Positions 12,977-29,106 of a stretch of 36,720 nt of DNA are shown here, in pieces. Origin of the DNA: Gammaproteobacteria bacterium (GTDB taxonomy: Bacteria > Pseudomonadota > Gammaproteobacteria > GCA-001735895); the NCBI GenBank assembly GCA_029882955.1, contig JAOUJX010000001.1:1-36720 (forward strand), given 5' to 3'. The notes under the pieces were generated by a model. It saw nothing but the letters and a program-made list of their open reading frames with translations, did not search any database and was not told where the DNA came from. How positions within the stretch are numbered: the first letter of the stretch is position 1; every line of letters begins with the position of its first letter. Both the position numbers and the translations under genes were made by a program.

Positions 12977-14212
12977 ATGCCTCAATTTATTAATACAAAC
13001 GTAGCATCGCTGAATACACAGCGTGCTTTGAACGGTTCACAAAATGCTTTGCAAACCTCGTTGCAACGTTTGTCTTCCGGCCTGCGTATCAACAGTGCCA
13101 AAGACGACGCGGCGGGTCTCGCGATTTCAGAGCGATTCACCGGTCAGATTCGCGGTTTGAATCAGGCCGTGCGAAATGCCAACGATGGTATTTCACTGGC
13201 ACAGACTGCAGAAGGCGCGCTTGCCAGTGTTGGTGGCTCGCTACAGCGTATTCGTGAGCTGGCTGTCCAGTCAGCCAACGATACTAACTCAGCAGGTGAC
13301 CGCCAGGCCATTAACGACGAAGTTCAGCAACTCATCTCAGAAATCGAGCGGGTTGCTAATACCACTGAATTCAACGGTCAGCGCGTACTCGACGGCAGTT
13401 TGACCGACCTGTTCTTCCAGGTCGGTGCTAACCAGGGTCAGACTATTGCGGTTACCGGAGTCGATTCCCGCACCAGTGTGCTGGGTACTTCAGAGTCTGC
13501 CGCAACAGCAACTGGTCTTAGCCAGACTCAGATTAATGATCCTGCCCAGGGAATCACTGGCTTTACCGCAGAAATGACGATAACCGTAGATGGTGCAGCC
13601 GCTGCGTTTGCGACAACTGAACTCGTCGCTTCGACTACCATGGAAGGCGCAGTGCGTGCGATTAATAACGCTATTGACACAGCAGCTAATGGTGATGCGG
13701 TGATAGCGGATGCCAATTTAAAGGCTTCTTTACGGGTCGATAACGCCGGTTTAACCAGTATTGTGGTCACCGGTAAATACGACTTAAATACGGCTAATCC
13801 GTTATTTGTAACTACTGCGGTGAGTGCGAACGTAGCTGATCCGGCTGGTGGTGCCGACATACCCACTGTAATACACGCAGGCGGTAACTCAACCCAGGAA
13901 GCCTTGACTACTATCGACGTAACTACTCGTTTAGATTCGTTCGAAGCCATTGCTGCGGTTGATGGTGCCTTAAACCAGGTCAACTCACTCCGTGGTGAGC
14001 TTGGTGCGGTTCAGGTTCGTTTCTCGTCTACTATTGCAAATCTGCAGACCACCTCTGAAAACCTGTCAGCATCCCGCTCACGTATCCGTGATGCGGATTT
14101 CGCTCAGGAGACTGCGGAACTGACTCGTAACCAGATCATTCAGCAAGCGGGTATCGCCATGTTGTCTCAGGCGAACTCAGCACCGCAGAACGTATTGTCA
14201 CTACTTCAGTAA
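12977..14212 (+). CDS. fliC: flagellin (copy 1, 411 aa)
   Basis: N-terminus LSSGLRINSAKDDAAGLAISERFTGQIRGLNQA...LQRIRELAVQSAND. C-terminus RIRDADFAQETAELTRNQIIQQAGIAMLSQANSAPQNVLSLLQ. GGGAGA RBS. Confidence 0.97.
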   Translation: MPQFINTNVASLNTQRALNGSQNALQTSLQRLSSGLRINSAKDDAAGLAISERFTGQIRGLNQAVRNANDGISLAQTAEGALASVGGSLQRIRELAVQSANDTNSAGDRQAINDEVQQLISEIERVANTTEFNGQRVLDGSLTDLFFQVGANQGQTIAVTGVDSRTSVLGTSESAATATGLSQTQINDPAQGITGFTAEMTITVDGAAAAFATTELVASTTMEGAVRAINNAIDTAANGDAVIADANLKASLRVDNAGLTSIVVTGKYDLNTANPLFVTTAVSANVADPAGGADIPTVIHAGGNSTQEALTTIDVTTRLDSFEAIAAVDGALNQVNSLRGELGAVQVRFSSTIANLQTTSENLSASRSRIRDADFAQETAELTRNQIIQQAGIAMLSQANSAPQNVLSLLQ

Positions 14213-15027: not shown

Positions 15028-16263
15028 ATGCCTCAATTTATTAATACAAATATTGCATCGCTGAATACACAGCGTGCTCTTAACGGTTCACAGGATGCTT
15101 TGCAAACCTCATTGCAACGCCTGTCTTCTGGTTTGCGTATCAATAGCGCCAAAGATGATGCTGCCGGTCTCGCAATTTCTGAAAGATTTACCAGTCAGAT
15201 TCGTGGTTTAAACCAGGCTGTGAGAAATTCCAACGATGGTATTTCGTTGTCTCAAACGGCAGAAGGTGCGCTTTCCAGCATCGGCTCAGCGTTGCAGCGC
15301 ATTCGAGAACTATCGGTACAATCGGCTAACGATACTAATTCTTCAGGTGACCGTCAGGCCATCAACGATGAAGTTCAGCAACTTATATCCGAGGTGGAGC
15401 GAGTCGCTAATACGACTGAATTTAACGGCCAGCGTGTTCTCGATGGCAGCCTTACGGATCTGTTTTTCCAGGTCGGAGCTAATCAGGGGCAGACCATAGC
15501 CGTTACCGGTGTCGATTCTCGTTCCAGCGTGCTTGGCACCTCAGAGTCTGCACTGGCGGCTGGTGGCATTTCACAGGATCAGATTAACAATCCGGCAATT
15601 GGTATTGCGTCTTTTAACGACATGACCATTACGGTTGACGGGGCTGTTACGGTAGTTGATACCGCACTTGCAACTGACATGTCGACAGCAACAACAATGG
15701 AAGGTGCGGTTCGCGCCATCAACACTGCAATCGGTGTTGCGTCTCAGACTGATCCAGTGGTCGCAGATGCTAATTTGAAAGCGTCTTTAAGAGTCGATAA
15801 TACGGGTTTAACCAGTATTGTTATTAATGGTAAATACGATTTAAATACGGCTGCTCCATTGTTTACAGCGACAGCTGTTTCAGCCACTCTGGCAGATGTA
15901 GGTGTCACCGTTGTTGCCGTCAGCTCTGGTGTGGCTTCAGCCCAGGTAGACTTGACAACTATCGATGTAACAACTCGCCAGGATGCGTACGAGACCATTG
16001 CTGCGGTTGATGGTGCCTTAAACCAGATCAATTCACTACGGGGCGAACTCGGTGCAATTCAGGCGCGATTCTCATCGACGATTTCCAATCTGCAAACCAC
16101 TTCTGAGAACCTGTCGGCTTCGCGTTCACGAATTCGTGATGCGGATTTCGCGGCAGAAACTGCCGAGCTGACACGTAATCAGATTATTCAGCAGGCTGGT
16201 ATTGCGATGTTGTCTCAGGCGAATTCAGCACCGCAAAATGTGTTGTCATTGCTACAGGGGTAG
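15028..16263 (+). CDS. fliC: flagellin (copy 2, 411 aa)
   Basis: Same conserved N- and C-terminal domains as copy 1. The central region has diverged (for example GISQDQINNPAIGIASFNDMTITVDGAVTVVD versus GLSQTQINDPAQGITGFTAEMTITVDGAAAAF). Confidence 0.97.
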   Translation: MPQFINTNIASLNTQRALNGSQDALQTSLQRLSSGLRINSAKDDAAGLAISERFTSQIRGLNQAVRNSNDGISLSQTAEGALSSIGSALQRIRELSVQSANDTNSSGDRQAINDEVQQLISEVERVANTTEFNGQRVLDGSLTDLFFQVGANQGQTIAVTGVDSRSSVLGTSESALAAGGISQDQINNPAIGIASFNDMTITVDGAVTVVDTALATDMSTATTMEGAVRAINTAIGVASQTDPVVADANLKASLRVDNTGLTSIVINGKYDLNTAAPLFTATAVSATLADVGVTVVAVSSGVASAQVDLTTIDVTTRQDAYETIAAVDGALNQINSLRGELGAIQARFSSTISNLQTTSENLSASRSRIRDADFAAETAELTRNQIIQQAGIAMLSQANSAPQNVLSLLQG

Positions 16264-21184: not shown

Positions 21185-22576
21185 ATGCCGGCTGAAAAAT
21201 CATCATTGAGAAACCAGGTGCCGCAAGGAGCCGAGGGCGATGTTAACAGCTCACCCTATCGCCGCGATTGGCAGTCCGGGAGAATCAATGCCGAAGCTCG
21301 CGTTATACTCGATAAAGATTCCCGCTATTTTCTGCGCCAGTCGGTGTCGACACCCTGTTTAAATACGATTAAAAAGGCGGAGGGAATCTGGATAGAAGAT
21401 CATTCTGGCAAGCGTTACATGGATTTTCATGGCAATAACGTACATCATATTGGCTACTCCCACCCTCGATTAATCGAAGCTATTAACCGACAAATGCAGA
21501 CTTTGTCATTCGCACCCAGGCGTTATGCCTGCGATGTTGCTGCGGAACTGGCCGAGAAACTCGCAGATATATCCCCGGGTAGTTTATCGAAACTACTGTT
21601 TACTACAGGAGGTTCGGACGCCATTGAAGTCGCTTTGAAAATGGCCCGGACTGCTACCGGACGATTTAAAACTATTTCATTCTGGGATTCGTTTCATGGT
21701 GCCGGGTTCGGTGCCAGCAGTGTCGGCGGTGAAGAAATGTTTCGTGGCGGATCAATTGGGCCGTTATTACCGGGAACTGAGCATGTGCCGCCGTTTGGCG
21801 ATTATAGAAATGCCTGGGGCGTGCGCGAAGGCAGTGCCGATCTTTGCGCGCGTCAGATTCGATACGTGCTGGAAAAGGAAGGCGATGTTAGTGCGGTCAT
21901 AGCCGAGCCGAGTCGAGCAGTGCCCTACATCGCTGCACCGGGTTTCTGGCAGCAGGTTCGGGAGGCCTGCAACGAGTTTGGTGCATTGTTGATCTTTGAC
22001 GAAATTCCTACCGGTCTCGGCAAGACTGGAAAGCTATTTGCCTGTGATCACGACGAAGTGGTGCCTGATATTCTTGTGATAGGCAAAAGTCTCGGTGGCG
22101 GTATTTTGCCCATCGCCAGTGTGATCTGTAAGCCCGAACTCGATGTTGCCGAACATTACGCCTACGGACATTATACGCACGAGAAAAATCCGGTAACCAC
22201 GCGCGCCGCATTAACCACAATTGAAATTATCGAAGACGAGGGCCTGGTCGAAAATGCTGCTGTCGTGGGTCAGTACGCCCTGCAACGATTAGAGGAAATG
22301 ATGGAGAGCCATCCTCTTATCGGCGATGTTCGTGGCAGGGGTTTTCTATTCGGTGTTGAGCTGGTGACCGACCGCGATAGTCGTGAGCCAGCAAATGATG
22401 CTGCAGATCGAGTGCTTTATCGTGCACTGGATAAAGGCCTGAGTTTTAAAACGACCATGGGCAATGTATTAACATTTACACCATCGTTAATCACCACGCA
22501 AAGTGATATGGCCTTTGCGCTTAATGTAATTGATGAATCTCTGGGCGAAGTTGAAAATGAGCTAGGCTTCAACTGA
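21185..22576 (+). CDS. class-III (aspartate aminotransferase-family) PLP-dependent aminotransferase, substrate unknown
   Basis: TTGGSDAIEVALKMAR, DEIPTGLGKTG and the PLP-lysine context VIGKSLGGG. ATG at 21185. There is no pathway context in the window. Confidence 0.85.
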   Translation: MPAEKSSLRNQVPQGAEGDVNSSPYRRDWQSGRINAEARVILDKDSRYFLRQSVSTPCLNTIKKAEGIWIEDHSGKRYMDFHGNNVHHIGYSHPRLIEAINRQMQTLSFAPRRYACDVAAELAEKLADISPGSLSKLLFTTGGSDAIEVALKMARTATGRFKTISFWDSFHGAGFGASSVGGEEMFRGGSIGPLLPGTEHVPPFGDYRNAWGVREGSADLCARQIRYVLEKEGDVSAVIAEPSRAVPYIAAPGFWQQVREACNEFGALLIFDEIPTGLGKTGKLFACDHDEVVPDILVIGKSLGGGILPIASVICKPELDVAEHYAYGHYTHEKNPVTTRAALTTIEIIEDEGLVENAAVVGQYALQRLEEMMESHPLIGDVRGRGFLFGVELVTDRDSREPANDAADRVLYRALDKGLSFKTTMGNVLTFTPSLITTQSDMAFALNVIDESLGEVENELGFN

Positions 22577-23986
22577 TAACGATTGATTAGGGAAAGTGAT
22601 GACAACTCTCAGGCCTGATCCTTTTTCCGGTGTCTCCATGGAAAGCGTAGCCTGGTGTAACTCAACTACCTGTGTGACTATGGATAAGCCGATGCCGCAA
22701 CCTGTTTCCTGATGGTTTTGTAAACGGTAATATCGCTCCAGTACCCGATCACGTTCTTCTTCTGGAATACCGGGGCCGTTGTCTTCGACGATGAGGCGAA
22801 ATTGCCTTTCATCGTTGATCAAACTCAGGCTAATAGCACCACCATCCGGGGTATAAGAAATGGCATTGCTGAGTAAATTTCGAATCAGCAATCGTAGGGA
22901 GGTCTCATCCACCGGGGCAATGACGTGATCGTTATCTGTGATAGACAGCTCGAGATTCTTGTCCTCCGCGATTGGTGCCAGTAAGGCAGTTTCTTCGACC
23001 AGGATCTTACCAATATCGATTCTCTCCAGCTGCTGGCTGAATTTCTCAGGCTCCAGTCGAGCCAGGGCGAGCAGTTGATTGACTAGATGTGTGCTGCGAT
23101 CGATACCCCGCATGACCTGATCGATAGCGGTGATACGATCACTTGCATTGTCGGCTTTGCGGGCCAGCTCGGCATGTAGCTTGACGGCGGAGAGCGGCGT
23201 CCTCAGTTCGTGTGCGGCATCCGATGTGATTCTCTTTTCTCTAGCCAGTGCATTTTTCAACCGGGATAGTAGCTGATTTACCGCCTCGGTAATGGTCTTG
23301 ATCTCAGCGGGTGTATTTGTACTGGTGATTGAGTCTAGTTTATCCGCACTACGCGATTTAATCTGGGAGGTCAGCTTTTGTAGTGGTGCTAGCCCCTGAT
23401 TGATAGCAAACCACATAACTATGGACAGAACCGGCACCAGGATCAGGAATAGTTGGAGCAGACCTTCAGATACTTCTTCGATTAATTCGTTGCGCACATC
23501 GATGCGTTCAGCGGTGATACAACGATACCTGCCATCAATACTGGTTAAGCTGAAAACTCTCCATTCGTAATCCGAGAAGTAATGATCACTAAACCCGCTT
23601 CGTCCGGCACTAATATCGGTGATCGGAAGGTTGGTCGATTTAAGAACCAGGTTTCCGGCGTCATCCCATATCTGAAATCCCAGCTTTGTTTCGTAGACAT
23701 GACCGTTGGCCAATTCTTCATCGTCATCAATATATTCGTCTAATTCAGGGTCGTGGTCCGATTTTAATTTGTTCTGGTCAAGAAATAATTGAATACTGGA
23801 GAGTTCTAAAGGGTTCCTGCCAACCTGCGCCAGGCTAAGAATCAGACGGGCAGAGCGGGATAATTGCGCATCGAATAACTCCTGGGTTTCATGTTGAATT
23901 GTGGCATAACTCATCCAGGATCCGCTGCCGACCAGTATGAAAGTTACCAGTAATAATCGTATTATGAGGATAGTTCGCATCGACAT
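22562..23986 (-). CDS. sensor histidine kinase, QseC/PmrB (BasS)-type
   Basis: TM1, a periplasmic domain of about 140 aa, TM2, H-box AAHELRTPLSAV, N-box LLSNAISYTP, G1 DNGPGIP and G2 GCGIGLSIV. Starts 5 nt after the response-regulator stop. Confidence 0.92.
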   Translation of the reverse strand: MSMRTILIIRLLLVTFILVGSGSWMSYATIQHETQELFDAQLSRSARLILSLAQVGRNPLELSSIQLFLDQNKLKSDHDPELDEYIDDDEELANGHVYETKLGFQIWDDAGNLVLKSTNLPITDISAGRSGFSDHYFSDYEWRVFSLTSIDGRYRCITAERIDVRNELIEEVSEGLLQLFLILVPVLSIVMWFAINQGLAPLQKLTSQIKSRSADKLDSITSTNTPAEIKTITEAVNQLLSRLKNALAREKRITSDAAHELRTPLSAVKLHAELARKADNASDRITAIDQVMRGIDRSTHLVNQLLALARLEPEKFSQQLERIDIGKILVEETALLAPIAEDKNLELSITDNDHVIAPVDETSLRLLIRNLLSNAISYTPDGGAISLSLINDERQFRLIVEDNGPGIPEEERDRVLERYYRLQNHQETGCGIGLSIVTQVVELHQATLSMETPEKGSGLRVVITFPNQSLSVEA

Positions 23987-23991
23987 ATCCG

Positions 23992-24651
23992 CTATTGCCT
24001 CGGTATGGTGTAACCGACGCCGCGGATTGTTTTGATTAAATCGGCACCAAAATATTTGCGCAGATGATGAATATGTACCTCGATAGCATTGCTTTCAATT
24101 TCGTCACCCCAGTTATAGAGTTTATCTTCGAGCTGGGCGCGTGAGAGGACTCGACCACAACTGGAGAGTAATTCTTCGAGTAGTGCAAATTCTCGACGGG
24201 ATAAGCCGATGACTTTCTCATCACGGGTGACGCTGTGGGCAGCAGGGTCGAGAATGATGTTTTTGTAGATAATGCGCTGTTCGGGCAGGCCACGGGAACG
24301 CCTGATTAAGGCGCGCAAGCGAGCACAAAGCTCGTCCAGTTCGAAAGGCTTGACCAGGTAATCGTCGGCACCAGCATCGAGCCCGGCTACCCTGTCTGAT
24401 AACCCGTCCTGTGCGGTTAATATTAAGACGGGTAAAGTGACCCCCTGGCCACGAATCTGTTTAAGCAGGTCAAGCCCGCTTATTTTTGGCAAGCCGATAT
24501 CCAGAATCATACAGTCGTATTCGGTTTCTCTGATTGCAGACAAAGCCGTTTCGCCATTTTTTACCCAGTCGACACTATAATTTTCGTGACCTAGACCGGC
24601 AAATAGCCCCTCACCGAGCAACGAGTCATCTTCTACCAGTAATAGCCGCAC
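23992..24651 (-). CDS. OmpR/PhoB-family response regulator, PmrA/QseB-like
   Basis: Receiver domain (VRLLLVEDD, DCMILDIGLP, LILTAQD, KPF) plus a winged-helix domain (LSRREFALLEEL...IRGVGYTI). The GTG at 24651 gives the canonical (M)RLLLVEDD N-terminus. The ORF-track GTG at 24681 is 16 nt from a putative operator and has no RBS. Confidence 0.9.
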   Translation of the reverse strand: MRLLLVEDDSLLGEGLFAGLGHENYSVDWVKNGETALSAIRETEYDCMILDIGLPKISGLDLLKQIRGQGVTLPVLILTAQDGLSDRVAGLDAGADDYLVKPFELDELCARLRALIRRSRGLPEQRIIYKNIILDPAAHSVTRDEKVIGLSRREFALLEELLSSCGRVLSRAQLEDKLYNWGDEIESNAIEVHIHHLRKYFGADLIKTIRGVGYTIPRQ

Positions 24652-24696
24652 AGAATCGATTCCATATAATATTGGGTACACATTTACCGTTTTAAT

Positions 24697-24804: not shown

Positions 24805-25287
24805 ATGAAATTAATAACGTCTATAGCCAGCCTCATGATGCTGGTATCAGTTAGTTTGAATGTAAGCGCTGCGACCGAAGCACCCAATATTAAATTACCC
24901 GGGCTGAATGGGGAAGTGAACCTGGAAAAGCTTAGAGGCAAGGTCGTTTATCTTGATTTCTGGGCTTCGTGGTGTAAGCCCTGCGCTAAGTCTTTCCCAT
25001 GGATGGAAGAAATGAACAGCGCTTATCGGGCTCAGGGGCTGGAAATAGTCGCGGTAAATCTCGACAAGGATCGCAAGGTGGCTGATGCCTTCCTGAAGAA
25101 ACTCGAAGTAAATTTTAAAATTGCTTACGATGCAGGAGGCGATACGGCAAGCCAGTATAAATTACGCGGTATGCCGAGCAGCTTTCTGATCGGAAGAGAC
25201 GGTAAGTTATATGCCACTCATATTGGTTTTCGCGATAAGGATAAGCCAAAAATTGAACAGGCAATCAAACAGTTACTCAAGCTTTAG
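24805..25287 (+). CDS. periplasmic TlpA/ResA-like thioredoxin-fold thiol:disulfide oxidoreductase
   Basis: Sec signal peptide (…SLNVSA/ATE), redoxin fold with active site FWASWCKPC and a GMPSSFLIGRDGK cis-Pro loop region. Confidence 0.9.
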   Translation: MKLITSIASLMMLVSVSLNVSAATEAPNIKLPGLNGEVNLEKLRGKVVYLDFWASWCKPCAKSFPWMEEMNSAYRAQGLEIVAVNLDKDRKVADAFLKKLEVNFKIAYDAGGDTASQYKLRGMPSSFLIGRDGKLYATHIGFRDKDKPKIEQAIKQLLKL

Positions 25288-25299
25288 TCAGGTTGGTTT

Positions 25300-25512
25300 A
25301 TGCGAACTTTTATTGTAATTTTCATGATGATATTTCTTTCGGCCTGCTCATCTCTGGGTGTACAACCCTGGGATCGAGACTTGCTGGCGAAAGATTCGAT
25401 GCAGCTGGTGCCCGATTATCTGGATAACTTCTTCGACGAGCATATCTACTTTAGCAAGGAGGCCAGCAGCGGTGGTCAGGGTGTTGGCGGCGGAGGTTGC
25501 GGATGCAATTAA
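25300..25512 (+). CDS. DUF4266-type small lipoprotein (70 aa) with C-terminal GGGGCGCN
   Basis: Lipobox FLSAC (Cys16, Ser at +2). Mature sequence QPWDRDLLAKDSM...EHIYFSKEASSGGQGVGGGGCGCN matches my memory of the DUF4266 family, including the terminal Gly-rich CGC motif. Confidence 0.8.
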   Translation: MRTFIVIFMMIFLSACSSLGVQPWDRDLLAKDSMQLVPDYLDNFFDEHIYFSKEASSGGQGVGGGGCGCN

Positions 25513-26807
25513 AAAATATTCGAAAGCAGATGAGTCTGGCGACCTGTGCCCTGTTACAGGCAGCTTCACCAGCTGTGAATGCCGAGGAAAGTGACTGGGA
25601 GATTGACACAGCCATATTATTTTATAGCGAAGACAATGGGCGTGTCAGTGCCATAGAACCGGCGATTTATGCCGGTCGAGAACTGGCCGACGACCAACGT
25701 ATCGATCTCAGACTAGTCGTCGATGCGCTCACGGGTGCCACGCCGAATGGAGCACACCCATCGGCTGTCTCACAAACCTTTACCACACCCTCGGGCGGGA
25801 GCACTTATACCGAAGCACCGGGTGAGTTGCCCCTGGATGATACCTTTAGAGATAGCCGGGTAGCTATCGGTGCCGATTGGGAAGTCGGCCTTGATCGTTT
25901 TTCCAGAGTTACCTGGGGCGGTAACCTGTCGAAGGAATATGACTATCTGTCGCTGGGTGGTAGTGCGACTTACGCGCGAGATTTTAATGACAGGAATACA
26001 ACCTTTACCACAGCATTTGCCTTCAATAACGATACGATTGAACCGGAAGGCGGTATTCCGTCGGTGTTTCAACCGATGAGGGTTGCGGGTTCCGGCCTCA
26101 ATCGTGAAGGTGCGGATGATGACAAAACGATTACCGATTTCATGCTTGGTGTTACTCAGGTTATTAGCCGCGAAACTATTATGCAGTTGAATTTTAGCTT
26201 CGGTCAGATCGATGGTTATCAAAATGATCCGTTTAAGATTGTGACTGTGGTCGATCCAGCTGACGGTTTACCAGCAGGGTCGGGTTTTTTCGATACGGCA
26301 AGCACCGGAAACCTGCCTTATGTTTACGAGCGCCGCCCGGATACACGTGACCGTAGCGTCATTTATTTCAAAACGGTACATCATTTCGAAGAGGATACGA
26401 TCAACTTTTCCTATCGTTATTACAACGACGACTGGGAAGTAACATCGCATACCCTGGATTTACGTTATCGTTACGAACTTGGAAATAGCTATTTACAGCC
26501 CCATGTTCGATTTTACCGGCAGGACGCTGCCGAATTCTATACGCATGATTTGACCCTGGGTACAGATGTCGATCCTGTTTCGGGTGCAGTATCAAGAGAC
26601 TATGCCACTAGCGACTATCGCCTCGCGGAATCAGAGACATTGACGCTCGGCTTAAAATACGGGATGCCTCTAGGCAATGACAGTGAATTATCAATTCGTG
26701 GCGAAGTGATCACTCAGTCCGTGAACGATGGCTCGGTGCGTCCGGGCGAGGAGACGGCTGATCTGGATGCTTTTGTGTTGCAGTTAAACTATTCGCTGCT
26801 CTGGTAG
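25503..26807 (+). CDS. DUF3570-type putative outer-membrane beta-barrel protein with ApbE flavinylation motif
   Basis: The ATG at 25503 has GGAGG 6 nt upstream and overlaps the DUF4266 stop by 10 nt. Signal peptide ...AASPAVNA/EE. Alternating beta-strand pattern and a C-terminal aromatic signal LQLNYSLLW. DALTGAT at residues 76-82 of the ORF-track translation. Confidence 0.82.
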   Translation: MQLKNIRKQMSLATCALLQAASPAVNAEESDWEIDTAILFYSEDNGRVSAIEPAIYAGRELADDQRIDLRLVVDALTGATPNGAHPSAVSQTFTTPSGGSTYTEAPGELPLDDTFRDSRVAIGADWEVGLDRFSRVTWGGNLSKEYDYLSLGGSATYARDFNDRNTTFTTAFAFNNDTIEPEGGIPSVFQPMRVAGSGLNREGADDDKTITDFMLGVTQVISRETIMQLNFSFGQIDGYQNDPFKIVTVVDPADGLPAGSGFFDTASTGNLPYVYERRPDTRDRSVIYFKTVHHFEEDTINFSYRYYNDDWEVTSHTLDLRYRYELGNSYLQPHVRFYRQDAAEFYTHDLTLGTDVDPVSGAVSRDYATSDYRLAESETLTLGLKYGMPLGNDSELSIRGEVITQSVNDGSVRPGEETADLDAFVLQLNYSLLW

Positions 26808-26863: not shown

Positions 26864-27745
26864 ATGAACGATATTAGATTAAAGCGGGATCCAGATTGTT
26901 GGCGGGGTAGTTTTATAGCCATGGCCAGCCCCTGTGAAGTGTTAATGGAGGTTGACGAAGAAGAGCTGGCGGGTCGAGTACTCGAAACTGTCGTCGATGA
27001 AGCCAGGCGAATCGAAGCTAAATTTAGTCGTTACCGTGATGACAATATCATCGCCAGAATTAATTCGGCGCAAGGCGATTCGGTTACTGTTGATGAGGAA
27101 TCCGCGCGACTACTCGATTTTGCCGACCAGCTTTACCAGATGAGTGACGGTCTGTTTGATATAACTTCAGGTGTATTACGCAAGGTTTGGCGCTTCGATG
27201 GGAGCGATCGAATACCCGGGCCTCGGGCCATCCAGCAAGTTCTGAAAAATGTCGGTTGGCATAAAGTGACCTGGCGGAATAGTCAGATAATATTAGACCA
27301 GGGTATGGAAATCGATCTCGGTGGTTTGGGAAAGGAGTACGCGGTCGATCGATGCATAACGCTGGCGCGTGAATTAACCGATAAAAGTGTCTTAATCAAT
27401 TTTGGAGGTGACCTTGCGGTCAGCTGTCAACGTCAGGGCGGTAAATGCTGGTCGGTCGGTCGATTGGTAACAGGGAGCGACCAGGCTGTTGCTTTGTTCC
27501 AGCTTTTTACAGGTGCAATCGCCACTAGCGGCGACGCTAATCGGTACCTGTTAAAGGACGGCGTCCGCTATAGTCATGTTTTAAATCCCAAATCTGGCTG
27601 GCCGGTTGTGGATGCACCACATACTGTCAGCGTCGCGGCTGCTACCTGCACGGAAGCCGGCATGTTTTCGACATTGGCGATGTTACAGGGCCCTCAGGCG
27701 AGGGAGTTTCTCAGTCTACAGGGTGTGGAGTACTGGGTTAACTAA
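26864..27745 (+). CDS. apbE: ApbE-family FAD:protein FMN transferase (no N-terminal signal peptide)
   Basis: Motifs FDITSG, GGLGKEYAVD, NFGGDLAV, AIATSGDANRY and HVLNPKSGWP are characteristic of ApbE/Ftp. An in-frame TAG at 26828-26830 prevents any N-terminal extension. Confidence 0.9.
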   Translation: MNDIRLKRDPDCWRGSFIAMASPCEVLMEVDEEELAGRVLETVVDEARRIEAKFSRYRDDNIIARINSAQGDSVTVDEESARLLDFADQLYQMSDGLFDITSGVLRKVWRFDGSDRIPGPRAIQQVLKNVGWHKVTWRNSQIILDQGMEIDLGGLGKEYAVDRCITLARELTDKSVLINFGGDLAVSCQRQGGKCWSVGRLVTGSDQAVALFQLFTGAIATSGDANRYLLKDGVRYSHVLNPKSGWPVVDAPHTVSVAAATCTEAGMFSTLAMLQGPQAREFLSLQGVEYWVN

Positions 27746-27762: not shown

Positions 27763-29106
27763 CTAAAGCACACAAACCCGATTACGACCGTCAGTCTTGG
27801 CCTGGTAGAGAGCCTTGTCGGCGCGCTTCAGGATATCCTCAAAAGTCTTATCCTTTTCCTGTAATGCCGACACACCGAGGCTGATGGTGGGCTTTATTGC
27901 GACCTTCAATTTGTTGACGATGGCCTTATCTTCCTGTGTTTTTCGTATACGTTCTGCGAGTATGGCGGCCGACTCGTGATCGGTATCGGATAATAATATA
28001 GCAAACTCTTCACCGCCGATCCGACAGAGTATATTTTCTTTTCGTAAGCAGGATTTATAAATTTTGCTGACTTCTCGCAAAACGATATCGCCAACCGGGT
28101 GACCGAATTTGTCGTTTATCGATTTAAACCAGTCGATATCAATTACGATAATCGACATGGCCGATCTGGAACGTTTGCAACGAGAAAACTCACGTCTACA
28201 CTGATCGTTGAAATAGCGCCTGTTGTAGAGCCCGGTAAGTGAATCTGTGATCGATTGGCGTAGCAGCTTTTCCTTGAGCAAAATTAATTCGGTGACATCG
28301 GTCGAATAGCTGATCGACGTGGCTGTACCATCCTTTAATTTAAACGGAATTTTTGTCGTCAGGTAATGTTTTAGTTCACCCGCTAAATTCGGCAACAGTT
28401 CTTCGGCGGTTTGTTTCTCATTAGTGTCGAATACTTCTTGATCAAGTTGCCAGAGATTATCGGCTACCTCCTGAGACACGAGCTCGGAGTCTTTCTTTCC
28501 TATGATGTCGTTTTGCTTCAGATTGAATAAATCCGCAGCAAATGAATTGGCGTAGCGCACTACTCGATTACGGTCCTTCATCAAGATTATCGCGTCAACG
28601 TTGTTTAAGATAGCGTCGAGGAAGTCCTTCTGTTCGTGAGCCGATATTTCCAGACGTTTGCGTTTCGTTATGTCGGTCGAGATGCCAAATAAACCGGTAA
28701 TTTTTCCAGACCTGTTTCGCAGTGGTTTTTTCACCGACATATAAATTCGTGTCTTGCTATTGGCCTTAAACAGGATAGTCTGTTCTACTTCTATAGTGGA
28801 TCCTTTGTCGAGCACCTTCTTATCGTTTTTTTGCAAGGCTTTACAGGTTTTTTCTTCGAACAAATCACTGTCCTGCTTGCCCACTAACTCAGCGAGTGGC
28901 AATCCGACCATATCCAGGAATAATTGATTTGCATAAGTATAGTTACCCTTGAGATCCTTAGAATATATTAAAGCTCCTGTCTGATTGACGACGCCAACCA
29001 GCGTACTGATATCGAGCTCCTGTGTTTGTTGGGACTTAATACTATCCACTATAATTACTCCATAACCTATGGGGGCAATATAGCAGAGATTTAAACTCCA
29101 TTGCAC
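27763..29106 (-). CDS. diguanylate cyclase, PAS-PAS-GGDEF (GGEEF active site)
   Basis: Two PAS-like segments (…IYSKDLKGNYTYANQLFLDMVG… and …ILMKDRNRVVRYANSFAADLF…). GGDEF domain with DSLTGLYNRRYF, DIDWFKSINDKFGH, RIGGEEF and ADKALYQAKTDGRNRV. The start is uncertain: the GTG at 29106 has no RBS, and the GTG at 29046 is preceded by GGAG. Confidence 0.88.
   Translation of the reverse strand: MQWSLNLCYIAPIGYGVIIVDSIKSQQTQELDISTLVGVVNQTGALIYSKDLKGNYTYANQLFLDMVGLPLAELVGKQDSDLFEEKTCKALQKNDKKVLDKGSTIEVEQTILFKANSKTRIYMSVKKPLRNRSGKITGLFGISTDITKRKRLEISAHEQKDFLDAILNNVDAIILMKDRNRVVRYANSFAADLFNLKQNDIIGKKDSELVSQEVADNLWQLDQEVFDTNEKQTAEELLPNLAGELKHYLTTKIPFKLKDGTATSISYSTDVTELILLKEKLLRQSITDSLTGLYNRRYFNDQCRREFSRCKRSRSAMSIIVIDIDWFKSINDKFGHPVGDIVLREVSKIYKSCLRKENILCRIGGEEFAILLSDTDHESAAILAERIRKTQEDKAIVNKLKVAIKPTISLGVSALQEKDKTFEDILKRADKALYQAKTDGRNRVCVL

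Follow-up and report, generated by a model that had tools for sequence, protein, structure and literature searches.

The DUF3570 family is an established substrate of ApbE (Méheust et al., eLife 2021, PMC8238504). "Two conserved [S/T]GA[S/T] motifs" were described in 228 ApbE-associated DUF3570 proteins, and the Chlorobium luteolum member became UV-fluorescent once it was co-expressed with its ApbE, a signal that was abolished only when both serines were changed to alanine (PMC8238504). The labelled protein was obtained mostly from the pellet of lysed cells and was purified under denaturing conditions (PMC8238504). At the level of gene neighbourhoods, 227 clusters combine DsbD with ApbE, DUF3570, a thioredoxin-like protein and DUF4266, and a further 316 contain the same four genes without DsbD (PMC8238504). 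Both the conservation of the motif and the labelling upon co-expression have therefore been published for the family since 2021; the DUF3570 flavinylation site and its four-gene cluster are already known, and flavinylation has been shown for a homologue (PMC8238504).

The requirements of the transferase have also been described. A 2025 JBC review gives the ApbE consensus as D-x-x-[S/T]-G-A-[S/T]; replacing the acceptor Thr by Ala abolishes labelling, replacing the Asp by Ala has a minor effect, and changing Gly to Ala or Ala to Val leaves about 50% of the labelling (PMC12052999). ApbE labels unstructured tags of 7 residues, and a cytosolic ApbE of Klebsiella pneumoniae serves as a maturation factor of fumarate reductase, a cytoplasmic target (PMC12052999).

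We analysed a stretch of 36,720 bases from an uncultured gammaproteobacterium (the window), which carries a cluster of this type. The features that we refer to are the following:

22562-23986, minus strand: histidine kinase with a 2CSK_N sensor domain (Pfam), divergent from the cluster
23992-24681, minus strand: OmpR-type response regulator (Pfam), divergent from the cluster
24805-25287, plus strand: TlpA/ResA-like periplasmic thioredoxin (Pfam Redoxin, E 3e-24; NCBIfam ResA/TlpA-like)
25300-25512, plus strand: DUF4266 small lipoprotein, 70 aa, lipobox LSAC (Pfam, E 1.6e-21)
25503-26807, plus strand (ORF from TTG 25497): DUF3570 gene (Pfam PF12094, E 4.1e-109)
25722-25742, plus strand: predicted flavinylation motif D76-A-L-T-G-A-T82
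25746-25757, plus strand: tandem remnant N84-G85-A86-H87, directly after site 1
25770-26222, minus strand: shadow ORF inside the DUF3570 gene, disregarded
25773-25796, plus strand: conserved segment Q93-T-F-T-T-P-S99-G100 in loop L2
26864-27745, plus strand: ApbE-family FAD:protein FMN transferase, 293 aa (Pfam PF02424, E 4.5e-62, 210 bits)
27763-29106, minus strand: PAS-GGDEF protein, after the cluster

By its gene content the cluster is the published module (TlpA-like thioredoxin, DUF4266 CXC lipoprotein, DUF3570 and ApbE) in the form that has no neighbouring DsbD, and it thus corresponds to the arrangement of the 316 published clusters (PMC8238504). DsbD (PF02683) was absent among the window ORFs of at least 150 aa, all of which were scanned but for two overlapping shadow ORFs. 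Our preferred reading, which we consider likely, is that Thr82 (Thr80 when counted from the ATG) is the acceptor of FMN, attached through a phosphoester bond by an ApbE-type transferase with FAD as donor, and that the protein is an ordinary member of this module.

The DUF3570 match is full length, extending over positions 3-426 of the 427 of the Pfam profile with 365.6 bits against a cut-off of 25. The TlpA-like protein carries a signal peptide; its active site is WCKPC, of which the CxxC is conserved. The tail of the DUF4266 lipoprotein is rich in glycine and terminates in GGGGCGCN, whose final CGCN is found in 69/69 homologues (from loci whose DUF3570 is 40-77% identical to that of the window). 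The DUF4266 gene overlaps the start of the DUF3570 gene by 10-16 nt, suggesting translational coupling, and the ApbE gene starts 57 nt downstream of DUF3570 on the same strand. The order thioredoxin, DUF4266, DUF3570, ApbE recurs in 4 genome loci, obtained by a single-protein scan of genome contigs, and in most of 80 metagenome loci, obtained by a profile-based scan (85 related loci).

Compared with the C. luteolum pair, DUF3570 ABB24424.1 and ApbE ABB24423.1 (PMC8238504), the window protein shares the full-length Pfam family, the four-gene cluster and the same class of motif at the conserved position of the family. On the other hand, it has one canonical motif with Thr as acceptor, whereas C. 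luteolum has two, both needed, with Ser as acceptor; the window ApbE is a further difference, being devoid of a signal peptide; and the C. luteolum homologue was tested by experiment, whereas the window protein is known here from its sequence. With NqrC, RnfG, PplA and NosR, the proteins of the FMN_bind domain, the window protein would share the consensus, the phosphoester FMN-Thr/Ser chemistry and the extracytosolic location, in its case by prediction. Those, however, are small soluble or inner-membrane-anchored domains, whereas the fold of the window protein is unrelated and is predicted to be a 16-strand barrel. Pfam returned no PF04205 match in the window DUF3570 protein.

The sequence-only reading had proposed a canonical ApbE motif near the N-terminus of the DUF3570 protein, and the proposal is borne out in its essentials. 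The codons gat gcg ctc acg ggt gcc acg at 25722-25742 encode DALTGAT, residues 76-82 of the ORF translation, on which sequence and ORF agree, and the heptapeptide fits the consensus as given in the review (PMC12052999). When all 36,720 bases were scanned in six frames, D..[ST]GA[ST] occurred at this one place, and a pattern scan gave no other [ST]GA[ST] in the four operon proteins, in accordance with the claim that the motif is the sole one among them. From the composition of the DUF3570 protein itself, the expected count in that protein is 0.006 for the 7-mer D..[ST]GA[ST] and 0.07 for the 4-mer [ST]GA[ST].

The predicted acceptor codon, that of Thr82, lies at 25740-25742 on the plus strand in a numbering that starts with the ORF 25497-26807. 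A GGAGG at 25492-25496 abuts the TTG at 25497 and sits 6 nt before the ATG at 25503, and the identical protein in the public record (P0001, 434 aa) is likewise annotated from ATG 25503. The true start is probably this ATG rather than the TTG that opens the ORF, in which case the acceptor is Thr80 of the 434-aa protein and the residue numbers of the ORF track are 2 too high. As the modified residue, the threonine singled out earlier is supported by the consensus, the conserved site, the ApbE neighbour and a flavinylated homologue; what has to be corrected is its number, Thr80 from the ATG. Judged by eye, the N-terminus, MQLKNIRKQMSLATCALLQAASPAVNA followed by EE, presents the n-, h- and c-regions and the AXA site of a Sec signal peptide, encoded by about 25503-25583. 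Cleavage is likely after residue 29, between VNA and EE, also by eye, and Thr82 then becomes residue 53 of the mature chain, consistent with the original estimate of about 50 residues past the cleavage site. The position of the motif, the cognate ApbE and the export signal would place the protein in the flavinylated DUF3570 class, and DALTGAT very probably marks a site of covalent flavin attachment on a predicted outer-membrane barrel.

Conservation of the motif among DUF3570 homologues, which had been named as a check on the assignment, was found both among close homologues and across the family. Among 120 homologues that are at least 60% identical, five residues do not vary (D76, L78, G80, A81 and P83); position 79 accepts T or S, and at position 82 T is found in 81 sequences and S in 39. 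Of the columns of a 68-sequence alignment (mean column identity 33%), only 18 are invariant, D76 and G80 among them. At least one canonical [ST]GA[ST] was present in 116/139 full-length representatives of 50%-identity clusters, nearly always at the DALTGAT position, and in a pooled census this site is canonical in 430/465 distinct DUF3570 sequences (92%). The acceptor position of the canonical sequences is occupied by T (109) or S (255) and by nothing else. On the evidence of these alignments, the DALTGAT motif is under selection.

A correlation between the canonical motif and an adjacent ApbE was sought in the related loci and none was found. The canonical motif is kept in 16 related loci that have no adjacent ApbE and have unrelated genes downstream, and in several loci with an adjacent ApbE (L018, L021-L023, L027, L029, L034, L036, L042) G-S-S or G-P-S replaces G-A-S at site 1. 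In view of these ApbE-linked relatives, motif and enzyme do not go together strictly: either Ser or Pro can stand in for the Ala in substrates of this ApbE subfamily, or the proteins concerned are without covalent flavin.

We then consider the number of sites. The window DUF3570 has a single [ST]GA[ST] and lacks the second motif of the published class. Directly after site 1, however remnant-like in the window, the tandem position has G85 invariant and A86 nearly invariant throughout the family, and is canonical [ST]GA[ST] in 36/465 sequences; in the window N-G-A-H the acceptor position is occupied by His, which has no hydroxyl, and thus cannot be flavinylated. At the position of Q93-G100 a canonical TGAS occurs in 7/465 sequences, Ser99 and Gly100 being nearly invariant, and since the window has T-P in place of G-A no ApbE site is predicted there. 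The position of D253-P-A-D-G-L-P is canonical in 3 representatives, and the window has L-P in place of A-T. This census favours the tandem position as the likeliest counterpart of the published second motif. D359-P-V-S-G-A-V-S was also tried as a degenerate second site and was rejected, only its Gly being conserved in 120 homologues. Since a second canonical site is absent, we infer that the window protein carries one flavin, and its clade is apparently a single-flavin variant.

The predicted structure provides a location for the site. The AlphaFold2 model of DUF3570 (57 sequences) has a mean pLDDT of 86.2 and a pTM of 0.82 and is nearly all beta, with 16 strands by DSSP. Among the Foldseek matches listed against the PDB there were outer-membrane barrels only, with E down to 1.5e-10 and TM-scores of at most 0.52; they include OmpG, FadL, AlgE, OccD, BcsC (TM-score 0.52) and PelB. 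The turns on one side of the model barrel are 2-5 residues each, and the loops on the opposite side are 5, 32, 2, 26, 42, 4, 35 and 12 residues long. The chain ends in NYSLLW with a terminal Trp, and W, F or Y is found at the end in 258/390 family members. The model predicts for DUF3570 an outer-membrane beta-barrel of 16 strands. In it, Thr82 falls where strand 3 reaches its outer end and the 32-residue loop L2 (82-113) begins; Ser99 belongs to the same loop.

Proteins of the outer membrane as a rule have both termini in the periplasm. With that orientation, strand parity would assign the flavin site, together with every family-invariant residue, to the half with the long loops, which is by convention the extracellular one: all 18 invariant and 22/25 nearly invariant residues are on Thr82's half of the model (Fisher p = 1e-5). 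If so, the invariant residues lie on the long-loop side, the reverse of ordinary porins with their usual variable surface loops, and this reversed pattern suggests that the flavin is surrounded, distally, by a conserved pocket or plug. In the literature searched, DUF3570 is not described as a barrel, nor is the membrane side of its flavin site.

The adjacent transferase presents a further peculiarity. The window ApbE begins MNDIRLKRDPDCWRGSF / MNDIRLKRDPDCWRGSFIAMASPCEV, with 19 polar residues ahead of the conserved first strand AMASPCE; inspection of the ORF leaves no possible in-frame start upstream, and neither a signal peptide nor a lipoprotein peptide of the kind that marks periplasmic ApbEs was found on it. 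In the same way, 45/45 DUF3570-linked ApbEs with an intact N-terminus have 15-41 mostly polar residues (median 23) before AMASPCE. In the alignment with the E. coli ApbE, model position 70 matches window residue 48, an offset of 22 residues, about the length of a signal peptide. The hydrophobicity maximum was tried as a discriminator of signal peptides and was set aside, the ApbE scoring 1.46 and the real but weakly hydrophobic signal peptide of DUF3570 1.69. Because hydrophobicity separates the two poorly, the case against a signal peptide rests on the short polar N-terminus and the 22-residue offset, and on these grounds the window ApbE is predicted to be cytoplasmic.

In other respects it is a regular member of its family. 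Its best sequence match in the PDB is T. maritima TM1553 (1VRM, E 4e-38), and the alignment to TM1553 shows that the SGD...Y and H-x-x-N/D-P segments are kept, as TSGDANRY and RYSHVLNP; the profile match together with these conserved segments identifies it, by homology, as an ApbE-family enzyme. The short N-terminus is seen in the ApbE of the window (26864-27745, plus strand), of L001 (6336-7217), of L002 (3823-4728) and of the 45 metagenome loci. The first strand A-M-A-S-P-C-E of the DUF3570-linked ApbEs has a conserved Cys. Classical ApbEs have M-G-T at this position. Like the cytosolic ApbE of K. pneumoniae (PMC12052999), the window enzyme has no signal peptide; the target of the former is cytoplasmic, whereas the only motif-bearing neighbour of the latter is an exported outer-membrane protein. 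As cytosolic ApbEs are known for cytoplasmic targets, it is odd to find one without signal peptide devoted to a barrel protein that is exported. We found no discussion of the missing signal peptide of the DUF3570-linked ApbE, or of the topological puzzle that results, in the literature searched.

Three alternatives were weighed. One of them keeps the modified residue and changes the enzyme: Thr82 would be flavinylated after export by a separate periplasmic ApbE encoded elsewhere in the genome, for example one that serves NQR or RNF, and the adjacent cytoplasmic ApbE would be otherwise employed. The lack of a signal peptide in the window ApbE and in all 45 linked homologues speaks for it, as do the 16 loci in which the canonical motif persists although no ApbE adjoins it and the cytoplasmic target of the known cytosolic enzyme of K. 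pneumoniae (PMC12052999). Yet this ApbE subfamily is closely and widely linked to DUF3570, which speaks for a dedicated partnership; the other three proteins of the cluster have no motif; and ApbE, which accepts short unstructured tags (PMC12052999), could modify the pre-protein before export. We hold a separate periplasmic enzyme to be unlikely, though worth bearing in mind.

The remaining two alternatives concern the protein itself. It could carry two flavins as the C. luteolum homologue does, the second on Ser99 within the non-canonical T-T-P-S-G; this residue is in the same loop, 17 residues from site 1, it and Gly100 are nearly invariant, and in 7 relatives its column reads T-G-A-S, the canonical form. 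Against this, the G and the A of the consensus are both missing at Ser99, where a single change of G to A or A to V already halves labelling (PMC12052999), and the tandem N-G-A-H would be the better candidate for a second site (36 canonical sequences versus 7), yet is without a hydroxyl here. A flavin on Ser99 is accordingly very unlikely in our view. Alternatively, the motif might be conserved for structural reasons, at the end of strand 3 and the start of the plug loop, in a protein that is not flavinylated. Its place at a strand-loop junction in the AF2 model and the absence of the canonical form from about 8% of family members would be compatible with such a role, but a homologue is flavinylated at motifs of this kind (PMC8238504), chance would hardly produce a match to the 7-residue consensus (0.006 expected), canonical sequences admit only T or S at the acceptor (109 T, 255 S) and an ApbE gene is adjacent. 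We give the purely structural explanation hardly any weight.

Under the preferred reading, flavinylation of Thr82 by an ApbE-type transferase, the modification would most likely take place on the unfolded chain. Flavinylation before export, on the cytoplasmic pre-protein, is plausible, because ApbE labels 7-residue unstructured tags (PMC12052999); the C. luteolum protein, which was labelled although it was found mostly in the pellet and purified under denaturing conditions, is a second point in favour (PMC8238504). If the placement on the long-loop side is right, the distal end of the barrel would house the flavin in a conserved pocket or plug. Electrons may pass from a periplasmic thiol, that of the TlpA-like protein, to the CGC tail of DUF4266, from there to FMN and on to a further acceptor, which follows the published model (PMC8238504).

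A more far-reaching version, in our opinion unlikely, would make DUF3570 a covalent flavoprotein embedded in the outer membrane, with its FMN pocket on the extracellular side, an ApbE that acts before export and a thiol-to-flavin conduit in which the GGGGCGCN tail reaches the flavin. The signal-peptide-less ApbE would attach FMN in the cytoplasm, ahead of Sec export and BAM insertion. The invariant, glycine-rich GGGGCGCN tail of DUF4266 would enter the barrel from the periplasm and hand on to the flavin the reducing equivalents of the TlpA-like thioredoxin, across the outer membrane. Porin-cytochrome conduits such as MtrAB have a redox cofactor associated with an outer-membrane barrel. The analogy would be a functional one, if the flavin relays electrons across or at the outer membrane; in contrast to MtrAB, the window system has no haem-binding partner, and there is no homology. 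The literature searched contains no described example of a covalent flavoprotein embedded in the outer membrane.

A reading of raw sequence has thus correctly rediscovered a published and experimentally validated modification site of the family. The value of the present analysis is in the refinements, namely the single-flavin clade, the acceptor Thr80, the predicted barrel with a distal functional site and the transferase without export signal. The distal site and the signal-peptide-less transferase together define a testable question, that of where an outer-membrane protein is flavinylated.

Finally, we looked at the surroundings of the cluster. A two-component system adjoins it not only in the window; the same is seen in related loci L001, L006, L011, L020, L022, L026, L034, L035, L042, L051, L061 and others, where the system is usually divergent from the cluster and sometimes downstream of ApbE. 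This recurrence in many related loci suggests dedicated regulation, and the two-component system is possibly the dedicated regulator of the cluster. In a few species DUF4266, DUF3570 and TlpA-family genes adjoin proteins with a JDVT-CTERM sorting signal (bioRxiv 10.1101/2023.06.07.544157), a neighbourhood that may offer a clue to some partner or substrate of the DUF3570 system. The rest of the window holds tgt, secDF, flagellar genes, a DEAD-box helicase, an aminotransferase, an MFS transporter and a peptide ABC transporter. Two flagellin genes of 411 aa each lie close together on the plus strand (12977-14212 and 15028-16263), both with Flagellin_N and Flagellin_C, and the flagellar cluster around them (flgG/H/I/J/K/L, fliD) occupies much of the first half of the window.
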